Shown here piece after piece: positions 1-14,158 of a stretch of DNA of 14,158 nucleotides (position 1 is the stretch's first letter; each line of letters starts with the position of its first letter). The position numbers and the translations under genes were made by a program. The stretch spans positions 1 through 14,158 of the forward strand of contig JANNWY010000027.1 in NCBI GenBank assembly GCA_031409335.1. The letters are read 5' to 3'. The notes beneath the pieces were generated by a model. It saw only the letters and a program-made list of their open reading frames with translations. It searched no databases and was not told the origin of the DNA. The DNA is from Chthoniobacteraceae bacterium (lineage in GTDB: Bacteria > Verrucomicrobiota > Verrucomicrobiia > Chthoniobacterales > Chthoniobacteraceae).

Positions 1-140
1 GCATGGGTGCGAGTTGTGGACGGAAGGCTGGGAAGTCGGATTGGCGTGTTGACATGCAACATGTTCTCCCAGAACACGTTGCATGTAAACAATATAAATG
101 CCTGAGCGCGTTTGTTTTACGCACTAATTGAGCGCCATTA
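1..140 (-). mobile_element. Probable end of an IS4-family insertion sequence (terminal inverted repeat at 123-140; element continues beyond the left edge)
   Basis: Minus strand 140->123 reads TAATGGCGCTCAATTAGT, 13/18 identical to the E. coli IS4 end as I recall it (TAATGCCGATCAGTTAAG). Kinase-like coding sequence starts right after position 140. Segment ~80-130 is AT-rich compared with the window. A minus-strand ATG at 4..2 could start a transposase running out of the window. No transposase is visible. Confidence 0.55.
47..91. repeat. 21-bp inverted repeat with 3-nt loop inside the putative IS end
   Basis: TGTTGACATGCAACATGTTCT (47-67), CCC, AGAACACGTTGCATGTAAACA (71-91): 19/21 complementary. 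Confidence 0.9.
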
Positions 141-331
141 GACTCCATGTGTCCATCACCGACAACGGCGTGGGGTGGCATCCCGACAGCGCCTCCGCCG
201 GACACGGCCTCGGCAATATGCGCGAACGTGCCAGCATGATGGGCGCAACACTTCACCTTTCTTCCAAACCCGGCATCGGCACCACCGTCCTGCTCGACGT
301 TGCTGCGAACAGTCGCTGGCACCGCTCCTGA
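141..331 (+). pseudogene. C-terminal HATPase_c fragment of a NarX/DesK-type sensor histidine kinase, 5'-truncated
   Basis: Translation LHVSITDNGVG...GHGLGNMRERASMMGATLHLSSKPGIGTTV contains the G1 (DxGxG) and G2 (GxGL) boxes and the terminal GT strand. An in-frame TAA at 125-127 removes the H-box, N-box and sensor. It ends 3 nt before a NarL-type regulator. Confidence 0.85.
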
Positions 332-334
332 ACT

Positions 335-1006
335 ATGGCCACCAATTCCAAATCTGACTCGCTGATCCGCGTCTGGATCGCCGAAGACCACGCCACTTAC
401 CGGCGCAGTCTGGAACGTCTCTGCACAAAGGATCGCGGCCTCGCTCCGGCCCGCGCTCTTTCCAACGGCGAAACGATGCTCGCCGCCCTCAAGCACGCGG
501 GCGCCGATGATTCTCCCGAAGTCATGCTGCTCGATGTCGGACTGCCGGGGCGCAGTGGACTCGACATCATCAAAGACATCCACCGCCACGCACCGCACTG
601 CCGCATCGTCATCCTCACCGTGTTCGAGGATGAGGCGAAGATTTGCGATGCCATCCGCTCCGGAGCCAGCGGGTATCTTTTGAAAACAGCGAGTGCCGAA
701 GTCGTCGCGGAAGCCATCCTCGAAGCCGCCAACGGAGGCTCCCCGATGTCGCCCAGCGTCGCCAGCCGCGTCGTTTCGCTGCTGGCAAAGTTGATGAAGC
801 CCATGCCGCAGAAAGTCGCGCTCTCGCCGCGGGAAAAAGAGCTCCTCACGCTCATGGTCGAAGGCTTGACTGCCAAGGAAATCGCCGACCGAATGAGCGT
901 CAGCATCCATACCACCGGCACGCACACCAAGAATCTCTTCACCAAACTCGAAGTCCACAGTCGCGCCGCCGCCGTCGCACGGGCGCTCCGAGATGAACTC
1001 GTATGA
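335..1006 (+). CDS. NarL/FixJ-family DNA-binding response regulator (REC + LuxR HTH)
   Basis: Receiver motifs IAEDH, LLDVGLPG (phospho-acceptor Asp), ILTVF and GYLLK. LuxR HTH LSPREKELLTLMVEGLTAKEIADRMSVSIHT...KLEVHSRAAAV. Confidence 0.95.
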   Translation: MATNSKSDSLIRVWIAEDHATYRRSLERLCTKDRGLAPARALSNGETMLAALKHAGADDSPEVMLLDVGLPGRSGLDIIKDIHRHAPHCRIVILTVFEDEAKICDAIRSGASGYLLKTASAEVVAEAILEAANGGSPMSPSVASRVVSLLAKLMKPMPQKVALSPREKELLTLMVEGLTAKEIADRMSVSIHTTGTHTKNLFTKLEVHSRAAAVARALRDELV

Positions 1007-1010
1007 AGGG

Positions 1011-1101
1011 GGGACGCTGTTTCACGGTTTCCACAGCGACGCATCTTTGAACTGCTGGCCAAGACCAACACGAATGAGAGCGCGGCCTGCAACGGCGTCC
1101 C
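1011..1101. repeat. 91-bp segment bounded by 14-bp imperfect inverted repeats (MITE-like remnant or terminator-like structure) between convergent genes
   Basis: GGGACGCTGTTTCA (1011-1024) versus TGCAACGGCGTCCC (1088-1101): 12/14 complementary. An internal alternative stem CGCTGT(1015-1020)/ACAGCG(1033-1038) is also present. Confidence 0.4.
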
Positions 1102-1138
1102 GAAGTCGAATGGAATACCGAACGCCTTCACTCCTCCC

Positions 1139-3421
1139 TCAATTGCGGAAGCCTTTTTCAGTGCCGGAGCGTTTCACTTTGGATTCTTGAATGGTGCCGG
1201 GCTTCCAATCTTGCGCCATCCGCACGTCGGCGGCCACGTCATCGGTTTGCTTGGGGATGTCCACTATGCCCGCACGGTTGTGGAGCACGGGCTGGATGGA
1301 TTGGCGGGTGTAGGCGGTGGAATAGTTTTTCCAATGACCGAGCGCGGCTTCGAGGTACTGCACGGCGGAGGTCTGTTGTGGCACGTCGCCGGTTTTGTCG
1401 AAGAGCGCGAGGTCGCAGGCACCGCGAATCTTCGCCGCGTAGTAAAGACCGAGATGGGACATGGCTTCGATGTCACCGAGCGTGGCGGCGTATTCTCTCG
1501 CGCTGGCGGCGGGAGTGATGTTGGCCCGCCGGAGTTCGGGCAGGGCGGCGAGTGCCCCGGTGGCATTGGAGTGCAGAGTGGCGGCGATTTCCTGCGGAGT
1601 GACGCCAGCGGGCATCTGCTTGGCGAGCAGGCCAGTGCGCCACTCGATGATGTTGAGCACACCCGCGCCGGGCATCGTGCCGCCTTCCATGAAGTGGCGC
1701 ACGGTGTAGAAGCCGGTTTTTCTCCGACACGCTTCAGGGAACCATTTCAAGTCGATGTCGCCCCAGAAGAATCGTGTGATGTCGGGAAACGTCTTCGAGG
1801 CATCGGCCCACGCGGCGGTGAGTTTCGGAACATCAGCACCCGCGAAGCGCGCAGCGGTGAGACGCTCGAACGTAGTAGCGGAGAGGTCAGGCTCGTAAGC
1901 GAGGCGTCCCCACAACGCGAAGGACAGCCATTGCTTTTGCATCACGGTCTGGCGCGGCGCGCCGGCGTCTTTGGTCAGGAAGTCGCGACCCCACACATAA
2001 CCATCCGGGCCCATGTAGAAGCCAGCGATCTTGTCCTCGCTGGGAATGGCTTTGATGAAGGCGCGGGCGTAATCCACGTCAGCCCAGCGGAAGCTGTAGA
2101 TGTCGTCATTGCGCACGGTGAGCCAACTGCGGAGCTTGGGGCTGAGCTCAGGGAGGAGCGGCTTGATCATCGCTGGCGCCGGCACGGAGTACATGTGCGC
2201 AACGGCGTATTTGAAGCTGACATCGAGAGTGCAGGGCAGTTCGGCGAACTCCTTTTTGATCTCACTCAGTCCTGTCATGTGGAAACGGTGAATGAGCCGG
2301 AACTTCCGCTCCGGCGTGTCTTTCAGCCCGTCGCGGATGCCCTCGCCATAGGTTTTCCAGAGCCACTTTTCTTTGGAGACATCCTTGAAGTCATCCTCCT
2401 TCATGGCCTCTCCCGCCGTGATGCCAAAGCCAGCGAGCAGCGGATAGGTCGTGATGGTTTCGCGGACGCTGGCGCGGAAATACTCGATCGTGCGCGGCGC
2501 AGTCTTGTCACTGGTGATGCCGTCCTTGCCTTCCGCTCCGTGGAGAAAGACGTTCCATGTGAACCAATACAGATCAATGCCGCGGTCTTTGCCGAGCTGC
2601 ATGACCGCGCGCCAGAACGCGATTTTTTCAGCGATGGTAATCCGCTTCACGACCTCGTGGTTGGCCAGCATCTTGGGGCGCACGAAGTCATTCCCCTGCG
2701 GATCAAAATCGGCACCGAGTTTCTCCTTGGTGCGCCAGACATCATCCAGCGCCACCTGCGGAAACTCCGGCACTTTCACGATGCTGGGGAAAGGATGGAG
2801 CGACCAGAGCGAGATCACGTTGTAGCGATGCCGGGCCATGTCGTCGAAAGTCTCGCGCCAGAAATCCATGCTCCACATTTCCGGGATATTTGCCTGCGCC
2901 GCATCCGAGGGTTCGGAATATGTCGGCGTGCGCAGATCGAGCGGGATGTTGAACTTGATGCCGCGCTGCGCGATGTGCGGCGTGTGGTCGGAGTCCTTCA
3001 ACGAATCGAGCGTGCCCGTGCGAATCGCCTCCGCCACATCCAGCCCGCCATACATGGCACCGGCGGCATCGGATCCGAACACGCGGATATTGGTGCCCTC
3101 ACGGGTGATGCGATAGCTTTGGGGGGCGGGGGCTTTGGCGTCCTTCTCGATGCTGAGAGTGATTTGTGCCTCGGTGGGTCTGGCGGCAGCCTCACGGCGA
3201 ATCTCTGCTTCTGCAAACTTGCCGGGTTCTCCGGTGGAGGGGTCGTTGGTCAGATTGAGGCTGGCGGCCAAAGCATGGCCGACGAAAAGATGGGCGGCAA
3301 AAAATGAGAGGAGGATTTTGGCTGGTGAAAGATGGCCGGAAAAAAATGAATACAGGCTCTGATTTTTTACCGAGAATTTTTTACCGGCTATAGCCAAGGC
3401 TGATGAGCGTGATGTGATCAT
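1139..3421 (-). CDS. Secreted glycoside-hydrolase-like protein (GH20/GH67-type N-terminal domain plus probable TIM-barrel domain); family not assignable
   Basis: 760-aa ORF with a signal-peptide-like N-terminus ending HALA|A. The segment PQSYRITREGTNIRVFGSDAAGAMYGGLDVAE...PHIAQRG matches the beta-hexosaminidase/alpha-glucuronidase N-terminal domain pattern. It is followed by FDDMARHRYNVISLW, typical of GH20/67/115-like barrels. ATG is 10 nt after the upstream stop. Confidence 0.75.
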   Translation of the reverse strand: MITSRSSALAIAGKKFSVKNQSLYSFFSGHLSPAKILLSFFAAHLFVGHALAASLNLTNDPSTGEPGKFAEAEIRREAAARPTEAQITLSIEKDAKAPAPQSYRITREGTNIRVFGSDAAGAMYGGLDVAEAIRTGTLDSLKDSDHTPHIAQRGIKFNIPLDLRTPTYSEPSDAAQANIPEMWSMDFWRETFDDMARHRYNVISLWSLHPFPSIVKVPEFPQVALDDVWRTKEKLGADFDPQGNDFVRPKMLANHEVVKRITIAEKIAFWRAVMQLGKDRGIDLYWFTWNVFLHGAEGKDGITSDKTAPRTIEYFRASVRETITTYPLLAGFGITAGEAMKEDDFKDVSKEKWLWKTYGEGIRDGLKDTPERKFRLIHRFHMTGLSEIKKEFAELPCTLDVSFKYAVAHMYSVPAPAMIKPLLPELSPKLRSWLTVRNDDIYSFRWADVDYARAFIKAIPSEDKIAGFYMGPDGYVWGRDFLTKDAGAPRQTVMQKQWLSFALWGRLAYEPDLSATTFERLTAARFAGADVPKLTAAWADASKTFPDITRFFWGDIDLKWFPEACRRKTGFYTVRHFMEGGTMPGAGVLNIIEWRTGLLAKQMPAGVTPQEIAATLHSNATGALAALPELRRANITPAASAREYAATLGDIEAMSHLGLYYAAKIRGACDLALFDKTGDVPQQTSAVQYLEAALGHWKNYSTAYTRQSIQPVLHNRAGIVDIPKQTDDVAADVRMAQDWKPGTIQESKVKRSGTEKGFRN
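3277..3389. repeat. A-tract/T-tract palindromic repeat (two direct units plus one inverted unit) within the 5' coding region of 1139..3421
   Basis: Units GGCCGACGAAAAGATGGGCGGCAAAAAAT (3277-3305) and GGCTGGTGAAAGATGGCCGGAAAAAAAT (3320-3347). Inverted unit ATTTTTTACCGAGAATTTTTTACCGG (3362-3387). The first unit is 26/29 identical to 7576-7604. Confidence 0.85.
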
Positions 3422-3431
3422 GTTGATGGTG

Positions 3432-4985
3432 TTATTGGGATGGTGCGTCGGTTCTGAAGGGGGCAGCGGGTAGATCTTGGCGATTGAAGAGGTTCACGTC
3501 GGGCACCTGAGCCCAGCCGAAGCGGACGGCCTTCGGAGCGGCGACCTTCTCGGATGACACGACGACCTTGTCACCTGCGATCATGGCATTGGCGGGCATG
3601 AACTTTCCATTGGCACCCGCAATGGTGAACCCTTTGAGTGTATCGCCCTTGGCCATGAGACCATCACCGATGTGTGTGAAAGAAATCACGGCGCGTTGTC
3701 CCTCAATGCTCATACTTTTGAAGACGGGGCCGGAGTATTCGATTTGCTCTCCATAGCTGAGGGCGCGGGCTGCGAGGGCGAGGCGCTCGCCCACTGGTTG
3801 CTTGCGAGTGGGATGGATGTTTTCCGCATTGCCCACGTCCGTGGTGACGACCATGGCGGTGTGCGGTGTTGCTTGCCAGATGCGTGCCTGCGCCTCGCGA
3901 AAGGCTGGGTGCGTGTCCCGGTACGGGGCCAATTGGACGAAGAGAAAGGGTAACTCGGGCCTCCACACTCGCCGCCAATCCGAGATCAGCGCGGGGAGCA
4001 GTTTTTCATACGCAGCGGCCTGGCCGGAATTTGATTCGCCCTGATACCAGACTGCGCCACGGATGGCAAAAGGCTCCAGCGGACCGATCATGCCATTGTG
4101 CAAGGCGCTGGGGCAGTCGTGGCAACGCTGTTTCGGCATCTTGGGTTCGGGCGGTACCGGCACGCCTTGGGCTTTGGCCGCTCTGACTGCTTGCGGGTGG
4201 ACTTCATCACGCTGATGCTGGAACTCTCGATAAGTCGTGGCGATGTTCTTGAATTCAGCGGGTGACACGTTTGCCCACTTTTCGATCAGAGCACCTGATT
4301 CGCCAGTCGCCAAGAGCGTTTCGGAGCGCATCCATGACTCAATCCGGGTGCCGCCGACTGAGCTGACGAGCAATCCGACCGGCACTCCGACTTTCTGCAC
4401 GAGGTCTCTGCCGAAGTAATAGGCCACTGCCGAGCACTCGGCGACTGTCGCCGGCGATGTCGGCATCCATGCGCCCGTTGCGTCTCCACATTTTTTTTGG
4501 TCAAACTGATGATCCACCGTGAAAAAACGCAGATGAGGGTGCTCCGACAGGGCGATTTCCGTGGCGGCATTTTCGACGCTCTTCATCCGAAAGTGCATGT
4601 TCGACTGCCCGGAGCAGAGCCAGACATCACCCACAAGGACATCGCTGATTTTGAATTTTCGATTCTCGATACTGGACTGAACGGCAAGCTCGCGTCCCTG
4701 GGCAGAGGCGGGCATCGGATCGAGTTTTAGTATCCAATTGCCGTTCGCGTCGGCAGTGGTTGCTTTGTTCTGGGTTGCGAAGGAAACGGTGAGTTGCTCA
4801 TTTGGATTTGCCGAACCCCAAATCGGCACGGTGGCATCACGCTGAAGCACGATATGATCGGTGAAGAGGCCTGCAAGCTTGAGATCGCCCTGGACGCGGA
4901 TGCGGGAACTTTGCGCGGCATCCTCGCCCAAAGCCATCGCGTGAGCGGCAAACACCCAACTGAAGAATGCAATGCGTGTGCGCAT
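3432..4985 (-). CDS. Sialate O-acetylesterase family (SASA, SGNH-type) carbohydrate esterase, secreted
   Basis: Motifs LFTDHIVLQR, GDVWLCSGQSNM (catalytic Ser block), GGTRIESW, GAVWYQGESN, NIHP and LFNRQDLPAAPFRTD. N-terminal signal peptide. The start overlaps the upstream stop (TAATG at 4987-4983). Confidence 0.93.
   Translation of the reverse strand: MRTRIAFFSWVFAAHAMALGEDAAQSSRIRVQGDLKLAGLFTDHIVLQRDATVPIWGSANPNEQLTVSFATQNKATTADANGNWILKLDPMPASAQGRELAVQSSIENRKFKISDVLVGDVWLCSGQSNMHFRMKSVENAATEIALSEHPHLRFFTVDHQFDQKKCGDATGAWMPTSPATVAECSAVAYYFGRDLVQKVGVPVGLLVSSVGGTRIESWMRSETLLATGESGALIEKWANVSPAEFKNIATTYREFQHQRDEVHPQAVRAAKAQGVPVPPEPKMPKQRCHDCPSALHNGMIGPLEPFAIRGAVWYQGESNSGQAAAYEKLLPALISDWRRVWRPELPFLFVQLAPYRDTHPAFREAQARIWQATPHTAMVVTTDVGNAENIHPTRKQPVGERLALAARALSYGEQIEYSGPVFKSMSIEGQRAVISFTHIGDGLMAKGDTLKGFTIAGANGKFMPANAMIAGDKVVVSSEKVAAPKAVRFGWAQVPDVNLFNRQDLPAAPFRTDAPSQ
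4647..4681. repeat. Degenerate heptamer tandem array inside the esterase CDS (encodes QSSIENRKFKI)
   Basis: Plus strand reads GATTTTG AATTTTC GATTCTC GATACTG GACTGAA: 7-nt periodicity in an AT-rich patch of a GC-rich gene. Confidence 0.55.
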
Positions 4986-7684
4986 TATTTTTGGAAGGCT
5001 TTGTGTTTTGAATCCCCGCCCGAGAGCAGATAGGCCATCAGGTCCATCAACTCCTCGCGGTTCAAGCCCGAGATCATTCCCGGAGGCATGATGGATACTT
5101 GGGAGAACTCGATGCCTTCCACCTTATCCGCCGGAGCTTTGGTGATCTGGTTCAAATCAAAAGGGTTCGAGGCCACGCCCACTTCCTGGTCATTCCGGAA
5201 AATCAGACGGCCATAGAGCGGGTCGCCGTCTTTAAGTTTCACGATGCTGGCCATGTATTGTTCGGAAATGGACGCGCTGGGTTCGCAGATGGCTACGAGG
5301 ATGTCGCGGATGGAGTAGCGGCTGCCCAGTGCGCCGAGGTCGGGGCCGGAGTGACCGCCTTCGCCGCCGACGCGATGGCAGGCGATGCACAGTCCGGCGG
5401 AAAACATCTTTTTGCCGTTCTCGAAATCCCGGCCGCGAAGCTCCGATTCAAACAGCTTCGTCGCTGTCTCGACGGTCCACGCTTCACCCGGACCCTTGGG
5501 CTTTGGCAGTTTGGAAAGATCGAATGCGGGGAAGTCACCCAGCAACCCAACCATCAGCTCGACATCCTGTGTCTCAAGCTGGCCGATGGCATCCTTGCGA
5601 ATCGCCCGGATGTATCCGGCAAAGCTTTTGCCGCCGTCCTTTGCCAAGACCTCGTTCAGCCAGCCGAAGAAGTATTTTCGGTCTTCAATCGTCCACCCAC
5701 TGCGCACGCGACGCAGGCAATACGTGTAGTGGATGTTCCGAATGTTGGGAGTGTTCGCCATCATCTTCAATATCGCCGCGCCATACTCGTGACGCCCGAG
5801 CATTGCCTTGTCGTAGTCCACCGTCGCGGTGCGGGTGGCTTTCATCAGCTCGATGGTTTTCCGCACGACCGTCGGAGCGTCGAGCGAGGCCAGCACCCGG
5901 CACAACTCGGCGTTCACGGTGTCGTCCTTCGAAGGGTAATGAGCATCCAGCTTGGCGATGACGGCCGATGCTTTCTCCCCGACAGGCTGGCCCATGCGCA
6001 TGAAACAGAGCGCATAGGCACGGAGCAGCGCCAGTTGGTCTTCCCGCTCCAGCGAGCCAAAAGGCACCTCGCCAAGTTTGTCGAGAAGCCGAGCGGATTC
6101 GGATAAGTCGCCATGGCGACTCAGCGCGATGCCCGCATAAATCACGGCCCGTGGATTGCGCTCCGCGAAGACCTTCTCGCGCCACAGCGCCACGTCTTGG
6201 TTCTCGACGGCGACGCGCGCGGCATAGCGGATGTTGCGGTCCGCGTGCGCGAGATGCGGCCAAGCCTTCGCCACCGCATCCGCGCTGCCTTCGCCACGAA
6301 CGTGGAATTTCTCCAGCGAGTGACGCAAGGCCCGGAGTTCGCTGTTGGGATGTGGCACAGCCGTCTCGGCTGTGTGGCCATTGGGCGTCCCGCCCGATGC
6401 AACAGGCGGGACACCTGTTGGCCCCACAGGCAGGATGCCTGTGCCACGTTCGCCCGTGTGGCGGATTCGATAAAGCCGCGATGCCGTCGTGCGGCCACCG
6501 GTGAGGAAATACATCGAGCCATCAGGCCCGAAGCGCATCGCCGCGATGTTCAGCGGACTGCCGTGCAGAAACTCCCTCTTCGTGCCGGTGTAAGTAGAAC
6601 CGCTTTCCTGCATCTCCACGGTGAAAATTGTGCCGAAGGTCCAATCGCAAACGAACAGCCTGTCTTGAAACTCCGCCGGGAAATTTGAGTGATGCCCGAA
6701 GCTGATGGCCGTCGGTGAACCCGGTCCCATGTCGAGCACCGAGCCGAGGCTGTCGGCGAAATAGTCGAGCCACACACCGGTGTTCGCCCGCCAGCCAAAC
6801 TCCGCGCCGCTGGTGATGTGATTGATCCGCGTGGGCCGATACCACGGGACGCCGACATCGAACTCCATGTCGGAATCATAAGTGAACAGCTCGCCCTCGC
6901 GATTCAGCGCGATGTCCACGGAGTTGCGGAAACCTGAAGCGATCATTGTCCAGTCCTTGCCGTCGGGCGAAATCCGGCACACCCAACCGCCCGGTGGCCT
7001 GAGCCCCACCGCGTGGCCCGAAGGATCGGGAATGACCGGGTGGAGCGTGTCCTCCCGCCACACCGGCGGCTGCATGGAAGTCGTTCCCTTTGGCACGCGG
7101 GTGAAATTTCCACTCACCAAATACAACCCCTTGCCGTCGGCGGTCGGGATGATGGAGTGGGCGGAGTGCTCATATCCCATGTCTAATTTCTGGAGCAGCG
7201 TAAACTCGTCAAACTGGTCGTCCCCATCCGTGTCCCGAATGCGATAAAACCCCCGCATGTTCGACATGTAGAGACTGTCGAATGCGTAAAGAAAACCCAG
7301 CGCCCCGCCGACCTTGCGTTTCCCCCAATCCACCGGCTCATAAGGAAAACCCGGCAGGCTCTCGACTTTGATTGCCGCCCCCCCGGCAGGCAGCGTCACG
7401 CGGAACGCGCCCTTGTCATCCTGATCGGAAACGATGAGGCGGCCCTTCGGATCAAAAGCCATCGCCACCCACGAGCCTTGGGATTTCGGCACCTCGTAAA
7501 GCAACTCAGCGTCGAAGCCTGGTCGGAGGGAGAGTCCACTATCCCTATCCAGAGACAGAGGCGCGTTATCAGGTTGGCCGGCAAAAAGATGGGCGGTAAA
7601 AAATACGGAAATTAGAAGTCCCCATCTTTTACCGAACATTTTTTTGCCGGATAAAAAGTTAGCGGATAGTGGTGCAGGTGGCAT
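4985..7684 (-). CDS. PVC-type heme-binding protein: beta-propeller (membrane-bound dehydrogenase-like) domain, HEAT-like helical region and C-terminal cytochrome c (CxxCH)
   Basis: Propeller-like motifs WVAMAFDPKGRLIVS, GFRNSVDIALNREGELFTYDSDME and MRFGPDGSMYF. HEAT-like DRNIRYAARVAVE. C-terminal RDFENGKKMF...CIACHR...GPDL...SIMPPGM...DLMAYL resembles the Pirellula/Verrucomicrobium heme-binding domain. The track start 7831 overlaps the sulfatase, so ATG 7684 (or 7639) is preferred. Confidence 0.88.
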   Translation of the reverse strand: MPPAPLSANFLSGKKMFGKRWGLLISVFFTAHLFAGQPDNAPLSLDRDSGLSLRPGFDAELLYEVPKSQGSWVAMAFDPKGRLIVSDQDDKGAFRVTLPAGGAAIKVESLPGFPYEPVDWGKRKVGGALGFLYAFDSLYMSNMRGFYRIRDTDGDDQFDEFTLLQKLDMGYEHSAHSIIPTADGKGLYLVSGNFTRVPKGTTSMQPPVWREDTLHPVIPDPSGHAVGLRPPGGWVCRISPDGKDWTMIASGFRNSVDIALNREGELFTYDSDMEFDVGVPWYRPTRINHITSGAEFGWRANTGVWLDYFADSLGSVLDMGPGSPTAISFGHHSNFPAEFQDRLFVCDWTFGTIFTVEMQESGSTYTGTKREFLHGSPLNIAAMRFGPDGSMYFLTGGRTTASRLYRIRHTGERGTGILPVGPTGVPPVASGGTPNGHTAETAVPHPNSELRALRHSLEKFHVRGEGSADAVAKAWPHLAHADRNIRYAARVAVENQDVALWREKVFAERNPRAVIYAGIALSRHGDLSESARLLDKLGEVPFGSLEREDQLALLRAYALCFMRMGQPVGEKASAVIAKLDAHYPSKDDTVNAELCRVLASLDAPTVVRKTIELMKATRTATVDYDKAMLGRHEYGAAILKMMANTPNIRNIHYTYCLRRVRSGWTIEDRKYFFGWLNEVLAKDGGKSFAGYIRAIRKDAIGQLETQDVELMVGLLGDFPAFDLSKLPKPKGPGEAWTVETATKLFESELRGRDFENGKKMFSAGLCIACHRVGGEGGHSGPDLGALGSRYSIRDILVAICEPSASISEQYMASIVKLKDGDPLYGRLIFRNDQEVGVASNPFDLNQITKAPADKVEGIEFSQVSIMPPGMISGLNREELMDLMAYLLSGGDSKHKAFQK
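6352..6447. repeat. 96-bp composite REP-like element (four hairpin units forming one long palindrome, GTGG ends) in frame within the heme protein gene
   Basis: GTGGCACAGCCGTCTCGGCTGTG (6352-6374) and CACAGGCAGGATGCCTGTGCCAC (6425-6447) are inverted copies. The inner pair is GGCCATTGGGCGTCCCGCCCGATG / CAACAGGCGGGACACCTGTTGGCC. Length is divisible by 3. Confidence 0.9.
7576..7669. repeat. Second copy of the A-tract/T-tract palindrome, within the 5' coding region of the heme protein gene
   Basis: CCGGCAAAAAGATGGGCGGTAAAAAAT (7578-7604) pairs with ATCTTTTACCGAACATTTTTTTGCCGG (7624-7650) at 23/27 with a 19-nt loop. A partial further unit CCGGATAAAAAGTTAGCGGATA follows from 7647. Confidence 0.88.
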
Positions 7685-7731
7685 GACTGTGAGTGGTTGA
7701 GACTGAATTGATGTTGGCGTGGAGTTGCGAC

Positions 7732-9042
7732 TCATTTTCCCAAAGTATCGAAAGCTGTCTGCAATGCTTTGCGGGCAGCGGCTTCCTTTTCTGGCTCTTG
7801 GTTTTGGTTGGGCTTGGACGACTCCTCCCATAGTTGGACGACGCGACGCAGTTGGTTTTTGTTATCCAGCATGTAGTCACGATTTCTCACTTGGCGGTCT
7901 TCGGCATTCTGAATGTGAATCCATTCCCGAGGCTGGCCGGGTTTCCCGAGAAGCTGCGGGGCGAATGAGCGTCCGTGGATGCTCTGCTCGGGTAGTTTGG
8001 CCCCGGTGAGTTCGCAGATAGTGGGGAAGATGTCGGAGAGATCGACGAGACCCTCGCAGGTGCCGCCGGGCTGGATGCGCCCCGGCCAGCGCACGAGAAG
8101 CGGGACGTGGGTGCCGCGGTCGGTCATCGTGCCTTTGCCTCCAGCGATCTTCTTGCCGTCGCCCCAAGTATTCACGAGGTCACGGTCAGTGCCGTTGTCA
8201 GCGAGGAAAAGCACGATGGTGTTTTCGGCGATGCCGAGGTCATCGAGGGACTGGAGCATCGCGCCGATTTGCTTGTCGAGGTAGGCGAGCATATCCGGGA
8301 AAAATCTCGGGTCGCCCTTGTGACCGGCCTCGGGTGCCCGGTAAGTCTTGTCCTTGCTGTCCGGCGTAGGCTCCCACGGGTAATGCGGCAGGCAGGTCGC
8401 GTAGTGGGCGAAGAAGGGTGTTTTGCTTTTCGCGTTGGCTTTGATGAAGTCGAGATAGACTTCGAGGTCCACGTCCGGGCCGTATCGGTCTTTGAGTTCG
8501 TCGGCGATGATGCGCCCGTCGCGCATCAAATATGGGTTCCAGTAGCGCGTGGTCTTCTGGCCCTGCTCATCAAAGATGCCCCACGTCTGGCAATGGTCGA
8601 AGCCAAATTCCCGGATGGTGTTGTGCTTGTGCTCCAGGGCCACATGCCACTTGCCGACGAGCTGCGTGGCGTAGCCGTGCTGCCGGAGCTGGCGCACGAA
8701 GCTCGGCTGCGAAGGCCGCAGGTAAATGTTCTCCTGGCTCTTGCTGTGCAGCACGACTTTCAGTCCGTTTTGAAAAGGATACCGCCCTGTGAGTAACGTG
8801 CCCCGCGAGGGCGAGCAAAACGGATTCGAGAAACAATGCGTGAACCTCATGCCCTCCTTCGCAAGCCGGTCGAGGTTCGGTGTCTTATGCGAGGTGCCGC
8901 CATAGGCGGAAAGGCATTCCAAGCCGAGATCATCGGCAAGGATGAGGAGGACGTTGGGTTTTGCGGAAGCAAGGGAAGTGAGGGCGAAGAAGCACAAGGC
9001 AACCCATGCGGCGCGTAGAGATGTCGGTCCGCCGCGTTTCAT
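7732..9042 (-). CDS. Cys-type (formylglycine-dependent, S1) sulfatase, secreted
   Basis: Motifs KPNVLLILADDLG, CSPSRGTLLTG (CxPxR), GKWH, PHYP, ADNG and GGKG. The start is set at ATG 9042, which overlaps the upstream TGA (ATGA) and gives the signal peptide MKRGGPTSLRAAWVALCFFALTSLASA. Confidence 0.95.
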   Translation of the reverse strand: MKRGGPTSLRAAWVALCFFALTSLASAKPNVLLILADDLGLECLSAYGGTSHKTPNLDRLAKEGMRFTHCFSNPFCSPSRGTLLTGRYPFQNGLKVVLHSKSQENIYLRPSQPSFVRQLRQHGYATQLVGKWHVALEHKHNTIREFGFDHCQTWGIFDEQGQKTTRYWNPYLMRDGRIIADELKDRYGPDVDLEVYLDFIKANAKSKTPFFAHYATCLPHYPWEPTPDSKDKTYRAPEAGHKGDPRFFPDMLAYLDKQIGAMLQSLDDLGIAENTIVLFLADNGTDRDLVNTWGDGKKIAGGKGTMTDRGTHVPLLVRWPGRIQPGGTCEGLVDLSDIFPTICELTGAKLPEQSIHGRSFAPQLLGKPGQPREWIHIQNAEDRQVRNRDYMLDNKNQLRRVVQLWEESSKPNQNQEPEKEAAARKALQTAFDTLGK

Positions 9043-10382
9043 TTTTTTGCGAGTGAATTTGCCCACTGCGCGTGTGCTTTGAGCAGTTCCGCAGCGCGCT
9101 CTGATTCGCGGGCGATGAGGTTTTCAGTTTCGCCGCGGTCGTTTTGCAGATTCACGAGTGAGACCGGTTTGCGGCGGTCGCCAGTCAGCTTCCACGGCCC
9201 TCTGCGAATCGCCCAGTCGTCTCCAGACTGCCAGTGGAGGTCGCGTGGCGCAGAAGGGTGGGTGCCTTTGAAAATGGGCGCGATGTCCGTGCCATCGAAG
9301 ACCCGGTCGGCTGGCAGACTCGCGCCTGCGAGCTTTGCGAAGGTAGGCAGCAAATCCATGGTCATGAGTGGCGCATCGCTGGTCGCTCCCGCGGGGATCG
9401 CTCCCGGCCACGAGGCGATGAAAGGCACGCGATGCCCGCCTTCATACAGCGTGTCCTTTTTACCGCGCAGGTTGGCGTTCGCCGCGAAGCCCCGAGGAGC
9501 CGCCGGGCCGTTGTCGGAGCAGAAAATCACGAGCGTGTTGGATTCGAGTTGATGCTTGCGCAACTCCGCGACGACTGTGCCGACTGATTCGTCCAAGGTG
9601 CCGATCATCTCCTTATAGGTCTCCACCGGTGACTTCTTGCTACGCAGATCGCGGCCTTGCAGCGGGTTGTGCGGCGTTCCGTGCGCGAGGAAGAGAAAGA
9701 ACGGCGTGTTCTTGCTCCGCGCGATAAAGTCGGTGGCGTATCGCGTCAGTAAGTCCGTGGAGTAGCCCGCTTCGTTTTCGATGGTGCGGTTGTTCCACCA
9801 ATCCAGCTCCCTTGTGCCGTAGCCCGCAACGTGCGTGTGGTAGTCCACGTTGCCACCCATAAACCCGCGAAACTCGTCGAAGCCATATTCCATAGGGTGA
9901 AATTTGTGGTCGTAGCCAAGGTGCCATTTGCCGACGAGGGAAGTGCGGTATCCGGCCTGCCTCAGCAATGCTGGCAGCGTCAGGTCCGTTTTGGAAATTC
10001 CCCACGCCCACCTTTGCACAGGGTTCTTTTTGCGCTGTTCGCGAAAGACCGGCGAAAGCTCCTCGTCGGCGACCTGTGCGCAGCGCTGCTGGTAACGCCC
10101 GGTGAGTAGCGCGGCCCGAGTCGGGGAGCAAAGGGCGCCATTTCCGTGGAAGTCGGTGAACCTCATGCCGCCAGCGGCGAGGCGGTCGATCTGGGGCGTT
10201 TTGACTTCTACGTTGCCGTAACAACCGAGGGAGCCGTAGCCCAAATCATCCGCAAGGATGAGGACGATGTTGGGCTTCCGTGTTTCGGCGGCGATGGATA
10301 CGCCCAGGGTGAGCGCGAGGATGGCAAAGAGCCGTGCCGCAATGAATATTCGTCGGAGCCACTTTGATAACTTCGCTCTCAC
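9039..10382 (-). CDS. Cys-type (S1) arylsulfatase-like sulfatase, secreted
   Basis: Motifs KPNIVLILADDLGYG, CSPTRAALLTG, GKWHLG, PHNP, SDNG and LRGKKDTLYEGGHRVP. The GTG start overlaps the upstream TGA (GTGA). Signal peptide present. Confidence 0.95.
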   Translation of the reverse strand: MRAKLSKWLRRIFIAARLFAILALTLGVSIAAETRKPNIVLILADDLGYGSLGCYGNVEVKTPQIDRLAAGGMRFTDFHGNGALCSPTRAALLTGRYQQRCAQVADEELSPVFREQRKKNPVQRWAWGISKTDLTLPALLRQAGYRTSLVGKWHLGYDHKFHPMEYGFDEFRGFMGGNVDYHTHVAGYGTRELDWWNNRTIENEAGYSTDLLTRYATDFIARSKNTPFFLFLAHGTPHNPLQGRDLRSKKSPVETYKEMIGTLDESVGTVVAELRKHQLESNTLVIFCSDNGPAAPRGFAANANLRGKKDTLYEGGHRVPFIASWPGAIPAGATSDAPLMTMDLLPTFAKLAGASLPADRVFDGTDIAPIFKGTHPSAPRDLHWQSGDDWAIRRGPWKLTGDRRKPVSLVNLQNDRGETENLIARESERAAELLKAHAQWANSLAKK

Positions 10383-12736
10383 AGCCGGGCGTGCATGAGG
10401 ATAAACTCAACCAGCTCGGGGCACTCGAAGAACGAGGGCGCAATTTCGTGGCCTCCGCCGGGAATGATTTTCACAGCGCAGGTGCCGCCGGCGGATTCGT
10501 AGCGTTCTTTGAGCAGCTTGGTGTTGTCGTTGTAGGGCACCGTCCCATCCTTGTCGCCGTGGACGGAAAACATCGGCACTTTTTGCGCAGCGAGAGCGGC
10601 AAGGTTGTCGATAGGGTTGAACTCGCCAATCCGGGCGAGCAGGGCTTCCTCGGTCAAGGCGAAGTCGGCGAGGGTGTCCTTTTTCGAGGATTTCAGCGGG
10701 TAGCTTGCGAGGTTGCAGACGGGGTAGATGCCTGCCCATGCCTGCACTTTATCGGGGTTCCGAAACGCCCACGCGAGGGTCATCATTCCGCCACGACTTT
10801 GGCCGAGCAGGATGGGCTTTGATGAGTAGCCGCGTTTTACCATTTCATCGTAGAAAGGCGTGAACTTGGCGGTGCTCCCCGGCGCGCCGCGCACTTCGCC
10901 GAGGTCGAATCCGGCGACGGCAATGCCTGCCTGCATGAAGGCGTCGAAATACGCTTTGTGCTTCACGATGATGAAGTCGCCTTTGACGATAGGCGCATAC
11001 CAAATCCAAGGCTTGCCGTTGGCTGGCTGGGGCGCGGCATAAACGAACGCATTGTTGCCCTCGAGTTCGAAGATGTCGGCTTTCGCGGGGGCAGGCTTTT
11101 TCACCGCAGGCGGTCGCTTCCATGACTCGGGCCGGACGATTTGCTTGGCGGCTTCGAGTTTCTCCCGCAGGGCTTCGTAGGGGAGGTCTTGCACGCTCAC
11201 GCTTTTGTCGATGGCTAGGCCAGCGGCGATGGCGGCGCTTTGCGAGAGCGCCATGAAGACGGGTTCCATGCGGATGGAGCCGTGGGCGACGTGGGAGGCG
11301 GCAAGGCAGATGGGGGAGAAAAGGTTTTCGCACTCGCCCTTCTTCGGGATGATCGAGCGATAGGAAATGCCATACGGCTTGGGCGGCACGCGCCAGATGA
11401 CGCCTTCGTTTTGCACCTTGCCGTTGTCGGTGACGATGTGCTGCACGCAGTGCGAGTCCATGCCAAATGAGCCGAGCGCGACGGGGTCGGGGGCGCTGCG
11501 AGTTCCGACGCAGTCGAGCTGCGTCATGACGTAGTCGGTCCCCATGCGGCGGGCTTCGCGGATGTAGATCATCCACGGCCAACCGCCGTTGTCGGTGAAC
11601 TCATCCTTTGGCAGACCAAAGGCCGCTGTCTTCTGGCGGATTTTTTCCGGCACGCGCGGGCTGTTCGACATCGTCCACAGAAAGCCGCGGATGTAAGTTT
11701 CGTGCGCTTTTTCAATCTCGCGGCGGCGCTCGTAGTTGGCCTCGGGGTAGTCATAGTTTGCGCCGACATAGTCGGAGCCGACGGCGTGCATGTTGTTCCA
11801 ATCGACCTTCTTGCCCGGTCCCTCCAGCGGCTCGACGAGCGCGGGCAGACGCGTGTCGCCCGCATCGAAGTTGCGCAGCAACAGTTCGTGATCGATCTCG
11901 CGGTAGCCCGGCGGTTTTTCGATGGGGATGCGGTTCTCCGGATTCGTCGTGAGACAGACGCGGTAGTTGTAGGCCTGAATCTTTTTGTCGCCCTGACCGT
12001 TCGTGAGTCCTTCGATTTTATTGATGTGCGGGAGCAGCCCGCTGCTCGGGTCGCCGGGCTTCACGTAGGGGTCCACCTCTTTCACGAAATGATCCTTGTC
12101 CTTTTGTCCATAGTGGACGCGCGGGTTGGTGTCTCCGCGCCGCACGCCAGCGAGGTCCTCGCCGTATTGACTCTCCGGCTCACGCCCGACAGTAAAAGTC
12201 ACACCCGCCGCCGCCATCAAGTCGCCGACGTAAGTCGCGTCGATGAACATTTTTCCGCTGTAGGTCTTGCCGCTCAGCGTCGTGATGGCCGTGATGCGCT
12301 TGCCCTCCATCGTCACGCCCTTTCCGGAAATGCGGTCGAGCTTTTCGTTGTAAACCACGGTGACACCCGCAGCGGCGATCATCTTCTCAAACACCTGCTT
12401 GCCGACATGCGGCTCGAAACTGCGGACGAAATCCTTGTCGTAAGCCTTCGCGACGCCCGCATAAAACTCGGACGCAATCCCGCCAAACGTGCCCTGTTTG
12501 CCGAGGAAATCCGTCGCCCCGAGTCCACTCGCACTCATGCCACCGGGGAAGCCCGTGGGATTCACCCAGATGACCGAACGCCCCTCGCGCTTGGCAGAAA
12601 TCGCCGCAACGACCGCCCCGGACGAATCGCCATACACCACGACATCATGCAACGGGGCGGGTGAGTGGGACCTGCCGCTGGCATTCAGCGAAGACAATGT
12701 GAGACCGCACAGAATCAGGAGGATGGAGTATTTCAT
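10379..12736 (-). CDS. Secreted FAD-dependent oxidoreductase (FAD_oxidored/PF12831-like) fused to a C-terminal alpha/beta-hydrolase
   Basis: Signal peptide, then Rossmann start HDVVVYGDSSGAVVAAISA and family motifs GGMSASGLG, FIDATYVGDLMAAAGV, IQAYNYRVCLT, YIREARRM, DSH and SHVAHGSIRMEPVFM. After a Pro/Lys linker comes a hydrolase domain with GQSRGG (Ser), HGDKD (Asp) and GGGH (His). Confidence 0.88.
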   Translation of the reverse strand: MKYSILLILCGLTLSSLNASGRSHSPAPLHDVVVYGDSSGAVVAAISAKREGRSVIWVNPTGFPGGMSASGLGATDFLGKQGTFGGIASEFYAGVAKAYDKDFVRSFEPHVGKQVFEKMIAAAGVTVVYNEKLDRISGKGVTMEGKRITAITTLSGKTYSGKMFIDATYVGDLMAAAGVTFTVGREPESQYGEDLAGVRRGDTNPRVHYGQKDKDHFVKEVDPYVKPGDPSSGLLPHINKIEGLTNGQGDKKIQAYNYRVCLTTNPENRIPIEKPPGYREIDHELLLRNFDAGDTRLPALVEPLEGPGKKVDWNNMHAVGSDYVGANYDYPEANYERRREIEKAHETYIRGFLWTMSNSPRVPEKIRQKTAAFGLPKDEFTDNGGWPWMIYIREARRMGTDYVMTQLDCVGTRSAPDPVALGSFGMDSHCVQHIVTDNGKVQNEGVIWRVPPKPYGISYRSIIPKKGECENLFSPICLAASHVAHGSIRMEPVFMALSQSAAIAAGLAIDKSVSVQDLPYEALREKLEAAKQIVRPESWKRPPAVKKPAPAKADIFELEGNNAFVYAAPQPANGKPWIWYAPIVKGDFIIVKHKAYFDAFMQAGIAVAGFDLGEVRGAPGSTAKFTPFYDEMVKRGYSSKPILLGQSRGGMMTLAWAFRNPDKVQAWAGIYPVCNLASYPLKSSKKDTLADFALTEEALLARIGEFNPIDNLAALAAQKVPMFSVHGDKDGTVPYNDNTKLLKERYESAGGTCAVKIIPGGGHEIAPSFFECPELVEFILMHARL

Positions 12737-12781
12737 TGGATAGAATTGCTACGAAATCAGTTGTTGAACGCCGCACCGTTT

Positions 12782-12873
12782 GGAGGACTGCAGAGACAGC
12801 TTTTCACATTACATCCTCTGCGGTCTTCCCGTCTCTGCAGATCAGCGGTTGCCTAAAAGTTTGTTTTAGCAAC
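12782..12873. repeat. Intergenic GCAGAG-type palindromic repeat cluster plus an adjacent hairpin, upstream of the FAD oxidoreductase gene
   Basis: GGAGGACTGCAGAG (12782-12795) pairs with CTCTGCGGTCTTCC (12816-12829) at 12/14. CTGCAGAGAC (12788-12797) pairs perfectly with GTCTCTGCAG (12831-12840). GTTGCCTAAAA/TTTTAGCAAC forms a hairpin at 12848-12873. Confidence 0.7.
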
Positions 12874-12888
12874 GGCATCACGAAGAGT

Positions 12889-13007
12889 TCAACGGATTCT
12901 GAACAGCTCGCTGGTCACCACGGCTTCGATGAGCGAGCGCAAGCCGTGTCGATGCGGCGGCCGCAGGCGCAGGAGAGCAGCGCCGGGATAGTTCGATAGA
13001 GCTTCAT
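12889..13007 (-). pseudogene. Remnant of a probable DUF1592/DUF1588/DUF1585-type PVC protein gene with a large internal deletion
   Basis: ATG 13007 follows an A/C-rich leader and reads MKLYRTIPALLSCAC, like a signal-peptide start. In another frame 12948-12889 reads HGLRSLIEAVVTSELFRIR*, resembling the DUF1585 C-terminus as I recall it. Confidence 0.5.
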
Positions 13008-13115
13008 GGTAGCGTGGTTTGTCGTTGGGTTTGTGGTTTGATGGATCGACTTCGAGGAAAGCACCTCCGGGTCGCAGTGTGTTTGCCCAGTTGAATCCAT
13101 CCGATCGCACGGCGA

Positions 13116-14158
13116 CTACTTCAGATTAGCCGCGGCTCGATTGGTTTTAATGGTCGGGTCGGGCTCGCCATCTTTTTCTTCTTTGTCGCCTTGGCTTTTT
13201 TTGGAGCCGACTACACCTGGCACAAAGGAGGCAGGATACAAAGCCGCCAGCCGCGCTTTCTGGGAAAGAATCTCGGGATCTTTCGAAGCGGCGAGATTGG
13301 TCCACTGCATCGGGTCGCGTTGCATATCGTAGAGCTCTTCTGTTCCCTCCTTGTAGCGAATGAAATACCAGCGCTCGTCGCGCACGGAGGCGTTGCCTGC
13401 GCCCTCGATGGTGATGGACGGGTAAGGCCAGGGCAGCTTCGGATCGCGCAGCAGCGGGGCGATGCTCCGGCCGTCGATTTCCGCTTTGGCCGGCAAACCG
13501 CACAAGTCAATCAGCGTCGGATAAAGATCCATCAGGTTCACCATGCGTGAACAATCCTGCCGCGACTTCATCCCCGGCACGCGGATGGTGAGCGGCAGAC
13601 GGGTGGATTCGGCCCAGAGCGTGGCTTTGCGGAAGCGCAGCTTCTCGCCCAGATGCCAGCCGTGGTCGCCCCAGATGACGACGATGGTGTTGTCGGCATA
13701 CTTGCTTTTTTCCAGCGCATCCAGCACCTGCCCCACGCAATCATCCGCATGGCTGGAGGCGGCCAGATAGGCCTGCGCCGCGCGCTTGAACAAGTTCGTG
13801 TCCTGCTGCACCCAATTAAAATCATCGCTGGGCTTGAATTTGGCTTTGCCCTTGGCATCCACAATATCACCGAGGTCATCGAGGCGGAACTCCGGAATCT
13901 TGATGCTCTCCAGCGGAAAACGGTCGAAGTATTCTTGCGGCACGTACCAGGGCAGATGCGGTTTGGAAATGCCCAGCGCGAGGAAGAATGGCTTTTCCGA
14001 TGGCTTGGACAGTTGCGCCAACGCCCATTGAGCCGCCTTCCAATCCTTGCTTTCTTCCTTGGGGCCCTTGGTCGGTCCCCATGAAAAGTCCACGCCTTCA
14101 CCATCGCCACTATCGTTCCCCTCGCCCTTCGCCGGGCCGAAGGACGCGGGCTTGCCGT
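13116..14158 (-). CDS. Sulfatase (iduronate-2-sulfatase/choline-sulfatase-like), C-terminal part; 5' end lies outside the window
   Basis: Motifs KPFFLALGISKPHLPW, DNTIVVIWGDHGWHLGEK, KATLWAESTRLPL, DLYPTLIDLCGL and EELYDMQRDP. The frame stays open from 14093 to the window edge. The CxPxR motif is not in view. Confidence 0.9.
   Translation of the reverse strand, partial: GKPASFGPAKGEGNDSGDGEGVDFSWGPTKGPKEESKDWKAAQWALAQLSKPSEKPFFLALGISKPHLPWYVPQEYFDRFPLESIKIPEFRLDDLGDIVDAKGKAKFKPSDDFNWVQQDTNLFKRAAQAYLAASSHADDCVGQVLDALEKSKYADNTIVVIWGDHGWHLGEKLRFRKATLWAESTRLPLTIRVPGMKSRQDCSRMVNLMDLYPTLIDLCGLPAKAEIDGRSIAPLLRDPKLPWPYPSITIEGAGNASVRDERWYFIRYKEGTEELYDMQRDPMQWTNLAASKDPEILSQKARLAALYPASFVPGVVGSKKSQGDKEEKDGEPDPTIKTNRAAANLK

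Follow-up and report, generated by a model that had tools for sequence, protein, structure and literature searches.

How can two genes that have no family in common begin with the same DNA palindrome, and what does it contribute to their products? The question is raised by a stretch of 14,158 nucleotides from a Chthoniobacteraceae bacterium (assembly GCA_031409335.1, contig JANNWY010000027.1, positions 1 to 14,158; hereafter the window), in which gene A and gene B, both long minus-strand open reading frames (ORFs), carry copies of one inverted repeat (copy A and copy B) at the 5' end. The palindrome is the border repeat of a cassette encoding a GxxExxY (PF13366) nuclease. From sequence comparison we consider it quite probable that the downstream copy of this repeat has been fused in frame to unrelated genes and would there stand in for their native signal as a Sec signal peptide. 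The genes and the parts of the two copies are:

1139 to 3421, minus strand: gene A, a glycoside-hydrolase-like protein of 760 amino acids (aa) and of unassigned family, with a predicted signal peptide of 52 aa from the ATG at 3421.
3270 to 3320, minus strand: second loop and T-rich arm (3277-3305) of copy A, encoding ILLSFFAAHLFVG-HA.
3321 to 3388, minus strand: first palindrome of copy A (A-rich arm 3362-3388, 14-nt loop, T-rich arm 3321-3347), like the palindrome that precedes nuclease genes.
4985 to 7684, minus strand: gene B, a heme-binding CxxCH protein of 899 aa, of the type found in the Planctomycetes-Verrucomicrobia-Chlamydiae (PVC) group, with a predicted signal peptide of 35 aa from the ATG at 7684.
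7576 to 7604, minus strand: T-rich arm of copy B, encoding FFTAHLFAG, the end of the hydrophobic h-region, with predicted cleavage after Ala, where the mature homologues start.
7605 to 7623, minus strand: 19-nt loop of copy B, joining the arms in one frame and encoding WGLLISV, the likely core of the h-region, apparently under selection.
7624 to 7650, minus strand: A-rich arm of copy B, encoding the basic GKKMFGKR, the likely n-region.
7651 to 7728, minus strand: what remains of a GxxExxY nuclease gene at its 3' end, including the stop at 7659-7661, and the likely start of gene B at 7682-7684.

A first-pass annotation of this DNA had pointed out the match between 3277-3305 and 7576-7604, and it holds at 26 of 29 bases. 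The match is beyond chance: the genome has 7 copies of the palindrome, and an exact pattern found it at 49 loci in 19 other genomes, titled Verrucomicrobiota or Planctomycetota, and at 54 metagenome loci. The inverted arms described at the same time were right for copy B, where 7578-7604 and 7624-7650 pair at 23 of 27 positions around the 19-nt loop to give a 73-bp unit with 27-nt arms, whose fold (z = -4.7 and -5.5 on the two strands) was equalled by none of 200 shuffles. In copy A (3277-3388) the description had missed a middle arm, 3322-3347: there are three arms, and the A-rich arm at 3362-3387 pairs better with the middle one (19 of 26) than with 3280-3305 (17 of 26), in a weaker fold (z = -2.7 and -1.7). 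The first palindrome of copy A resembles those that precede nuclease genes, and the remainder (3270-3320) aligns over 52 nt, with a single in-frame 3-nt gap, to the 3' half of the cassette ahead of a family-A gene elsewhere (L111). The whole of copy A is therefore probably a cassette that has collapsed and lost its nuclease gene. We rejected an assembly chimera at the unitig level: unitigs of runs X1 and X2, which come from one study and possibly from the source sample, bridge both copies with no differing letter. No RNA data set was listed as containing this stretch.

The first-pass annotation had compared the palindrome to a free-standing repeat such as the Rickettsia palindromic elements (RPEs), and here the genome gives a different answer. 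The 7 full copies in this 7.9-Mb genome lie on three contigs, and two of them directly precede genes for 261-aa GxxExxY proteins (PF13366, TIGR04256), each of which is followed by another copy. The two bracketed genes score 55.9 and 58.3 bits against PF13366 (cut-off 22); the other two PF13366 genes of the genome are bracketed by different palindromes. Further carriers include related lake and sediment bacteria, and the loci contain 12 distinct complete cassettes, all coding for 261 aa at 78-97% identity, with a D...ExK motif in all 12 and a QxxxY motif matched in 11. These cassettes precede at least five kinds of gene, among them two types of DUF1592 cytochrome, a 3-keto-disaccharide hydrolase, another cytochrome, a gene-A orthologue and malate synthase G, which is a cytoplasmic enzyme. 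The downstream copy is fused directly to the next gene in 8 of the 12 cassettes and by way of tandem relic copies in 2, while in the 2 ahead of malate synthase G the frame is closed by stops. The palindrome that precedes the nuclease gene has a loop of 12-15 nt in 9 of the 10 copies printed and of 16 nt in one, and takes part in no such fusion. In the window the nuclease gene survives as the 3' remnant just ahead of copy B, whose local alignment to the 3' end of the nuclease gene scores 48, a value reached by none of 1000 shuffles.

Cassettes or lone repeats occupy junctions between co-directional genes: one contig of the genome G335 has 6 palindromes at gene junctions within 17 kb, of which 3 are fused, 2 intergenic and 1 ahead of a nuclease gene. 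A DNA search of 40 relatives matched 2; a match in G017 was left uncounted, being a lone stretch resembling the T-rich arm within an ordinary signal peptide. A sister pattern matched 2 of 301 genomes of the phylum, in repeat-rich stretches of a different variant with no long reading frame seen. At six loci (L059, L061, L047, L071, L080 and L119) we observed tandem amplifications of about 169 bp, each unit consisting of the nuclease tail, the palindrome and the first codons of a DUF1592 gene; their non-terminal units often contain stops or Pro, and they show up as many short called ORFs.

What happens where the downstream copy meets a gene is seen most clearly by comparing orthologues. Five of the 7 genome copies are fused in one frame to secreted-type proteins (gene A, gene B, a sulfatase, a DUF1592 cytochrome and a 3-keto-disaccharide hydrolase), which bears out the proposal that the repeat recurs in frame at the N-termini of unrelated secreted-type proteins; with a sixth family at L046, the fusions in this genome and its relatives involve at least six unrelated families. 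The expectation that orthologues would carry unrelated signal peptides was also borne out. Among the matches listed, the element peptide is present in none of 120 gene-B homologues (64-87% identical) and in 2 of 119 gene-A homologues, and most of the others have ordinary signal-like N-termini that end where the T-rich arm ends (hydropathy measured for 111 and 104). Three carriers in the gene-A family do not group together, and a tree of 26 rows (19 of 45 having been dropped by an anchor-motif or length filter) needs three changes to account for them.

Alleles at other loci show different stages. At L045 and L076 the palindrome is intergenic, the gene-B orthologue retains the native signal, and one locus has the loop in the opposite orientation to the other; at L004 and L063 repeat arms lie upstream of a DUF1592 gene that has its native signal; and at L019, L034 and L062 there are fusions with a 17-nt loop, in which the T-rich arm is read in another frame ahead of the native h-region. 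A palindrome at L070:626-698 (P0254) follows a nuclease tail and is in frame with the next gene, whose native signal is still present downstream, and it is possibly an intermediate before deletion. A profile search of longer proteins gave 59 matches, of which 21 were proteins of at least 250 aa with the motif within residues 13-30 and most others short shadow or fragment ORFs; only 1 of the 21 full-length proteins has a charged residue in the loop. Five proteins (P0295-P0297, P0302 and P0304), known as protein sequences only, retain the hydrophobic part although their basic arm is degenerate or missing through an in-frame deletion, so that the hairpin itself appears to be dispensable in fused proteins.

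We observed two further features of sulfatase and cytochrome genes in this genome. The sulfatase at the end of the window (13116-14158) shares 87% identity across 234 aa with the one on contig C126 that begins with the element; the contig stops short of the N-terminus of the window gene, where there may be a further copy. At G000:C30:797-922, a paralogous DUF1552-DUF1592 junction holds a palindrome of a different family, with the start codon and h-region between the arms and the cleavage region SLCVSA-PLRE encoded by the T-rich arm; the native signals at L004 and L063 bear a trace of this repeat.

The fused element has much of the make-up of a signal peptide. It stands at the N-terminus directly ahead of the mature domain, aligned with the native signals of homologues, and consists of a basic n-region followed by a hydrophobic h-region (GKKMxGKR, then WGLL..FF). 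By eye, the residues from -3 to -1 of the predicted cleavage site, where -3 and -1 are ordinarily small, read A-L-A in gene A and L-F-A in gene B (Leu at -3, Ala at -1). It is likely that the element acts as the Sec export signal of these unrelated genes and has replaced their native one. The translations of both N-termini, and the lack of homology between the genes, are as first described: gene B matched TIGR02603 above and TIGR02604 below the cut-off, and also Cytochrom_C, while gene A had no Pfam match and met an alpha-galacturonidase model weakly, far below its cut-off. Heme is attached to c-type cytochromes outside the cytoplasm. Gene B would need a signal if it is functional, because a c-type cytochrome must be exported to receive its heme.

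The first-pass annotation had explained this architecture by the arms: with AAA for Lys and TTT for Phe, an A-rich arm followed by a T-rich arm yields an n-region and then an h-region. This logic does explain a pre-adaptation, but the hydrophobic core depends on the loop, which decides the working reading. The T-rich arm does contribute the end of the h-region and the cleavage region, although the arms alone make no h-region, and at L019, L034 and L062 the arm is used in another frame. The shared orientation, with the A-rich arm first, had been offered as evidence as well; it is uninformative, because an inverted repeat of this kind reads A-rich arm then T-rich arm on either strand.

If the loop supplies the core, does selection act on the peptide that it encodes? 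From 170 orientation rows, 92 had a 19-nt loop and represented 46 palindromes, of which one copy cut by a contig end was dropped. We took one reading per palindrome after grouping by hand, using the pyrimidine-rich reading for unfused copies, a choice that favours the null. Not one of the 15 fused copies has a loop disrupted by a stop, Pro or a polar or charged residue, but 23 of the 30 unfused copies do (0 of 12 against 17 of 21 when distinct loop peptides are counted). The constraint is specific to codon position: in the fused loops the second position is T or C in 75 of 75 codons, while the first and third positions hold 16 and 32 purines. When random substitutions were simulated at the observed numbers, a mean of 10 of 14 distinct loops was disrupted, and none of 5000 runs was without disruption. 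On the opposite strand of the same 15 copies the best-window hydropathy is 0.0-1.3, against 1.7-2.3 in the signal frame. Hence the fused loops show the signature of purifying selection that would keep the encoded peptide hydrophobic.

Where does translation begin? In the 20 codons that precede the hairpin there is an open in-frame ATG in each of the 15 fused copies, but in 7 of the 30 unfused ones. Where the nuclease tail remains, this ATG is in its last codons, 12 codons ahead of the arm, a position that would allow translational coupling. Its predicted probability of being unpaired is 0.68 (gene B, 7682-7684), against 0.24 for the ATG inside the arm; the latter is absent from gene A and from L111, and is deleted in P0302 and P0304, which retain the hydrophobic part. 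Translation thus likely starts upstream of the hairpin, in the tail of the nuclease gene where one is present, and the ATG within the hairpin that gene callers often choose is probably not the one used. The placement of both repeats in the first 50 or so codons is correct for gene A from the ATG at 3421 and for gene B from the ATG at 7684; from the start of the longest ORF of gene B, at 7831, the arms would be codons 62-85. Between the T-rich arm and codon 110, which is already inside the conserved domain, gene B has no in-frame start.

Several observations weigh against a captured signal peptide. The best 10-residue hydropathy of the fused elements (1.7-2.3) is below the native median of 2.5 (5-95% range 1.9-3.1), with a His inside the segment; the predicted signal of gene A, at 52 aa, is long, and a start at the in-frame TTG of codon 51 would leave a protein with no signal at all. 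Upstream of gene A a nuclease remnant was not detectable (71 of 1000 shuffles as good). Tandem relics taken alone are disrupted in 9 of 15 cases, leaving 6 intact, and the 8 stop-bearing copies of one group are possibly the product of one event. The copies are kin by descent, so that the Fisher p-value (5e-7) and the other p-values overstate the contrast. The cassette may be mobile, to judge by near-identical cassettes ahead of unrelated genes and by filled and empty junctions; no target-site duplication was visible in the 12-nt flanks printed for 27 copies, although old copies may have lost theirs. A profile search of 1.84 billion cluster representatives returned 24 matches of 28-287 aa, mostly short shadow or fragment ORFs, from which it follows that many copies are translated into nothing useful; full-length matches are few there, since such carriers fall in clusters whose representatives are relatives bearing other signals. 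Finally, the other palindrome families of this genome are almost all intergenic.

We also considered other ways in which such fusions could arise. The built-in start codon and signal could be an adaptation of the cassette itself, allowing it to replace the 5' ends of secreted-protein genes in operons without inactivating them. Ten of the 12 complete cassettes lead into a fused gene, two of them by way of tandem copies; a single frame results from the loop length of 19 nt and the ATG in the tail of the nuclease gene, the junctions fall at the cleavage site in unrelated targets, and the loop is fairly hydrophobic in the signal frame even in copies that bear stops. Yet survivor bias would look alike, the cassette also stands with a closed frame ahead of a cytoplasmic enzyme, the palindromes with the shorter loops that precede the nuclease have made no such fusion, and we found no recent insertion paired with a clean empty site, so that we regard this adaptation as unlikely. 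Rather doubtful, too, is the idea that GxxExxY cassettes are a new class of mobile elements of operon junctions whose 3' end is an evolved, portable start codon and signal, and which would home into signal-peptide DNA, exchange the native signal for their own and so remain harmless in the manner of inteins or introns, and be a major source of signals in the PVC group. Passive co-option, several times over, is the most likely form of capture.

Alternatively, there might have been one founding fusion, after which the signal passed to neighbouring genes for secreted proteins through gene conversion or shuffling of modules between repeat copies, independently of the nuclease. The WGLL-like start common to fused loops across targets is consistent with this, as are the clustering of copies (6 palindromes in 17 kb in G335, three contigs here), the inversion of the loop between the orthologous L045 and L076, which shows recombination between arms, and the sulfatase and L046 fusions, which have no significant nuclease remnant. 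However, at least four different fused targets have an intact cassette directly ahead of them and gene B has a tail remnant, indicating that the nuclease gene travelled with the signal in most cases; we find the single founder quite improbable, and it would alter the route while leaving the function unchanged. A further alternative is that the palindrome is purely a hairpin of the 5' untranslated region or intergenic space, acting in mRNA stability or processing, and that the in-frame reading is an artefact of gene calling in proteins that start downstream or are dead. The strong fold, the TTG at codon 51 of gene A and the presence of the repeat ahead of a native signal at L045, L076 and L070 could be read in this way, and the available text of Di Nocera et al. 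warns that most N-terminal intragenic repetitive extragenic palindromes (REPs) may be misannotated (PMC3733652). It leaves unexplained, however, why constraint specific to codon position should act within an unpaired loop, why the native signal is missing from the fused alleles, why the peptide outlasts the basic arm in 5 proteins, and how gene B could start ahead of its conserved domain; we judge it very improbable.

With capture of the border repeat as a signal peptide as the preferred reading, the course of events may be pictured as follows. A cassette or lone repeat lies at a junction between co-directional genes. If the gene that follows codes for a secreted protein, its native signal would be lost through a short deletion or a recombination event that fuses the T-rich arm to the start of the mature part, at the cleavage site; we infer this step because alleles from before and after it were found. 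Translation would then begin at the ATG 12 codons upstream, inside the last codons of the nuclease gene where these are present; the A-rich arm would supply the basic residues, the loop the hydrophobic core and the T-rich arm the cleavage region, and the product would be exported by Sec. Purifying selection would thereafter hold the loop hydrophobic, while the nuclease gene and even the basic arm can disappear afterwards; what is left of the cassette is a tail remnant at gene B and probably a collapsed scar at gene A. The nuclease might conceivably drive the recombination.

If this is true, it describes one route by which bacteria gain new signal peptides. For the gain of whole signal peptides there would be a named donor here, repeated capture in unrelated families, a built-in negative control and visible intermediates (the intergenic repeat with a native signal, the fused allele and the cassette scar). 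Palindromic borders are also connected here with a nuclease family whose function is listed as unknown, and they offer a testable substrate for it.

Other repeats and genes in the window and genome are described here in their own right. Long plus-strand ORFs whose products look secreted have h-region or N-terminal segments encoded by two further repeat families (IFLSLIFLSS and IFLSSIFLSS; MICDHLRL), at G000:C111:30424 and 35965 and at G000:C30:32195, and the gene-B homologues P0027 and P0028 have similar repeat-like leaders. Two abundant palindrome families of G000 (31 and 27 arm matches) are, by eye, almost wholly intergenic. Within gene B, 6352-6447 is an imperfect 48-bp inverted repeat encoding a linker rich in Pro, Gly and Thr, and other contigs of X2 are shorter and different there. 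A near-perfect 21-bp inverted repeat with a 3-nt loop at 47-91, near the start of the window, is possibly a regulator binding site, and the product of 10379-12736 combines an FAD-dependent oxidoreductase with an alpha/beta hydrolase domain in one chain, whose N-terminus resembles a signal peptide.

How does this repeat compare with known systems? Both genes bracketed by it elsewhere in the genome belong to GxxExxY/PDDEXK_3 by score, and the window itself holds the 3' remnant only. In the accessible text of PMC3424549, PF13366 is listed as being of unknown function, and that of bioRxiv 10.1101/2021.01.26.428298 mentions GxxExxY once, beside a reverse transcriptase. Our literature search, which covered few subscription journals, found no paper on this repeat, on palindromes flanking GxxExxY genes or on their donation of signal peptides. 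Being short, with terminal inverted repeats and a hairpin fold, the unit resembles a miniature inverted-repeat transposable element of the RU-2, ERIC or NEMIS type, but it shows no target-site duplication, and its partner gene belongs to PF13366 and is not a known transposase. The REP/REPIN-RAYT and TIRYT systems, as presented in the available portion of PMC3733652, are alike in having a nuclease- or transposase-type gene bracketed by palindromes that are also found alone between genes. Here, however, a GxxExxY PD-(D/E)XK protein takes the place of the HUH tyrosine transposase, the copies are few (7 per genome), and the arm ends have neither a GTAG nor a CGTC end tag.

The RPEs are similar in that a palindromic repeat is translated in frame within unrelated proteins, but the available account (PMC2229807) presents them as insertions of 105-146 bp and roughly neutral additions, whereas here a functional segment would have been replaced at a fixed position. 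Length and host also differ; the distinction is drawn from the description, and an Rfam scan of the window matched no family at the gathering score. The closest precedent is the Yersinia repeat RU-2 (YPAL), which according to the accessible parts of Delihas 2007 forms part of the predicted signal of YPO1552, with homologues carrying unrelated signals (PMC2759123, PMC2229807); the first-pass annotation knew of no description of such a role, and for a bacterial repeat PMC2759123 had already given one. From what these sources offer, RU-2 is 168 bp long, makes target duplications of 3-26 bp and is involved mainly at one locus, unlike the 73-bp repeat here, which has no visible duplication, would supply nearly the whole signal in at least six unrelated families, is linked to a PD-(D/E)XK nuclease and bears the marks of selection on its peptide. 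A survey of Enterobacterales, in its accessible text, found gains of whole signals with no transposable element nearby (PMC5952966). Measured against these precedents, repeated replacement across unrelated families, the intermediates and the codon-level constraint are, as far as sequence comparison can indicate, the strongest points of what appears to be new here.

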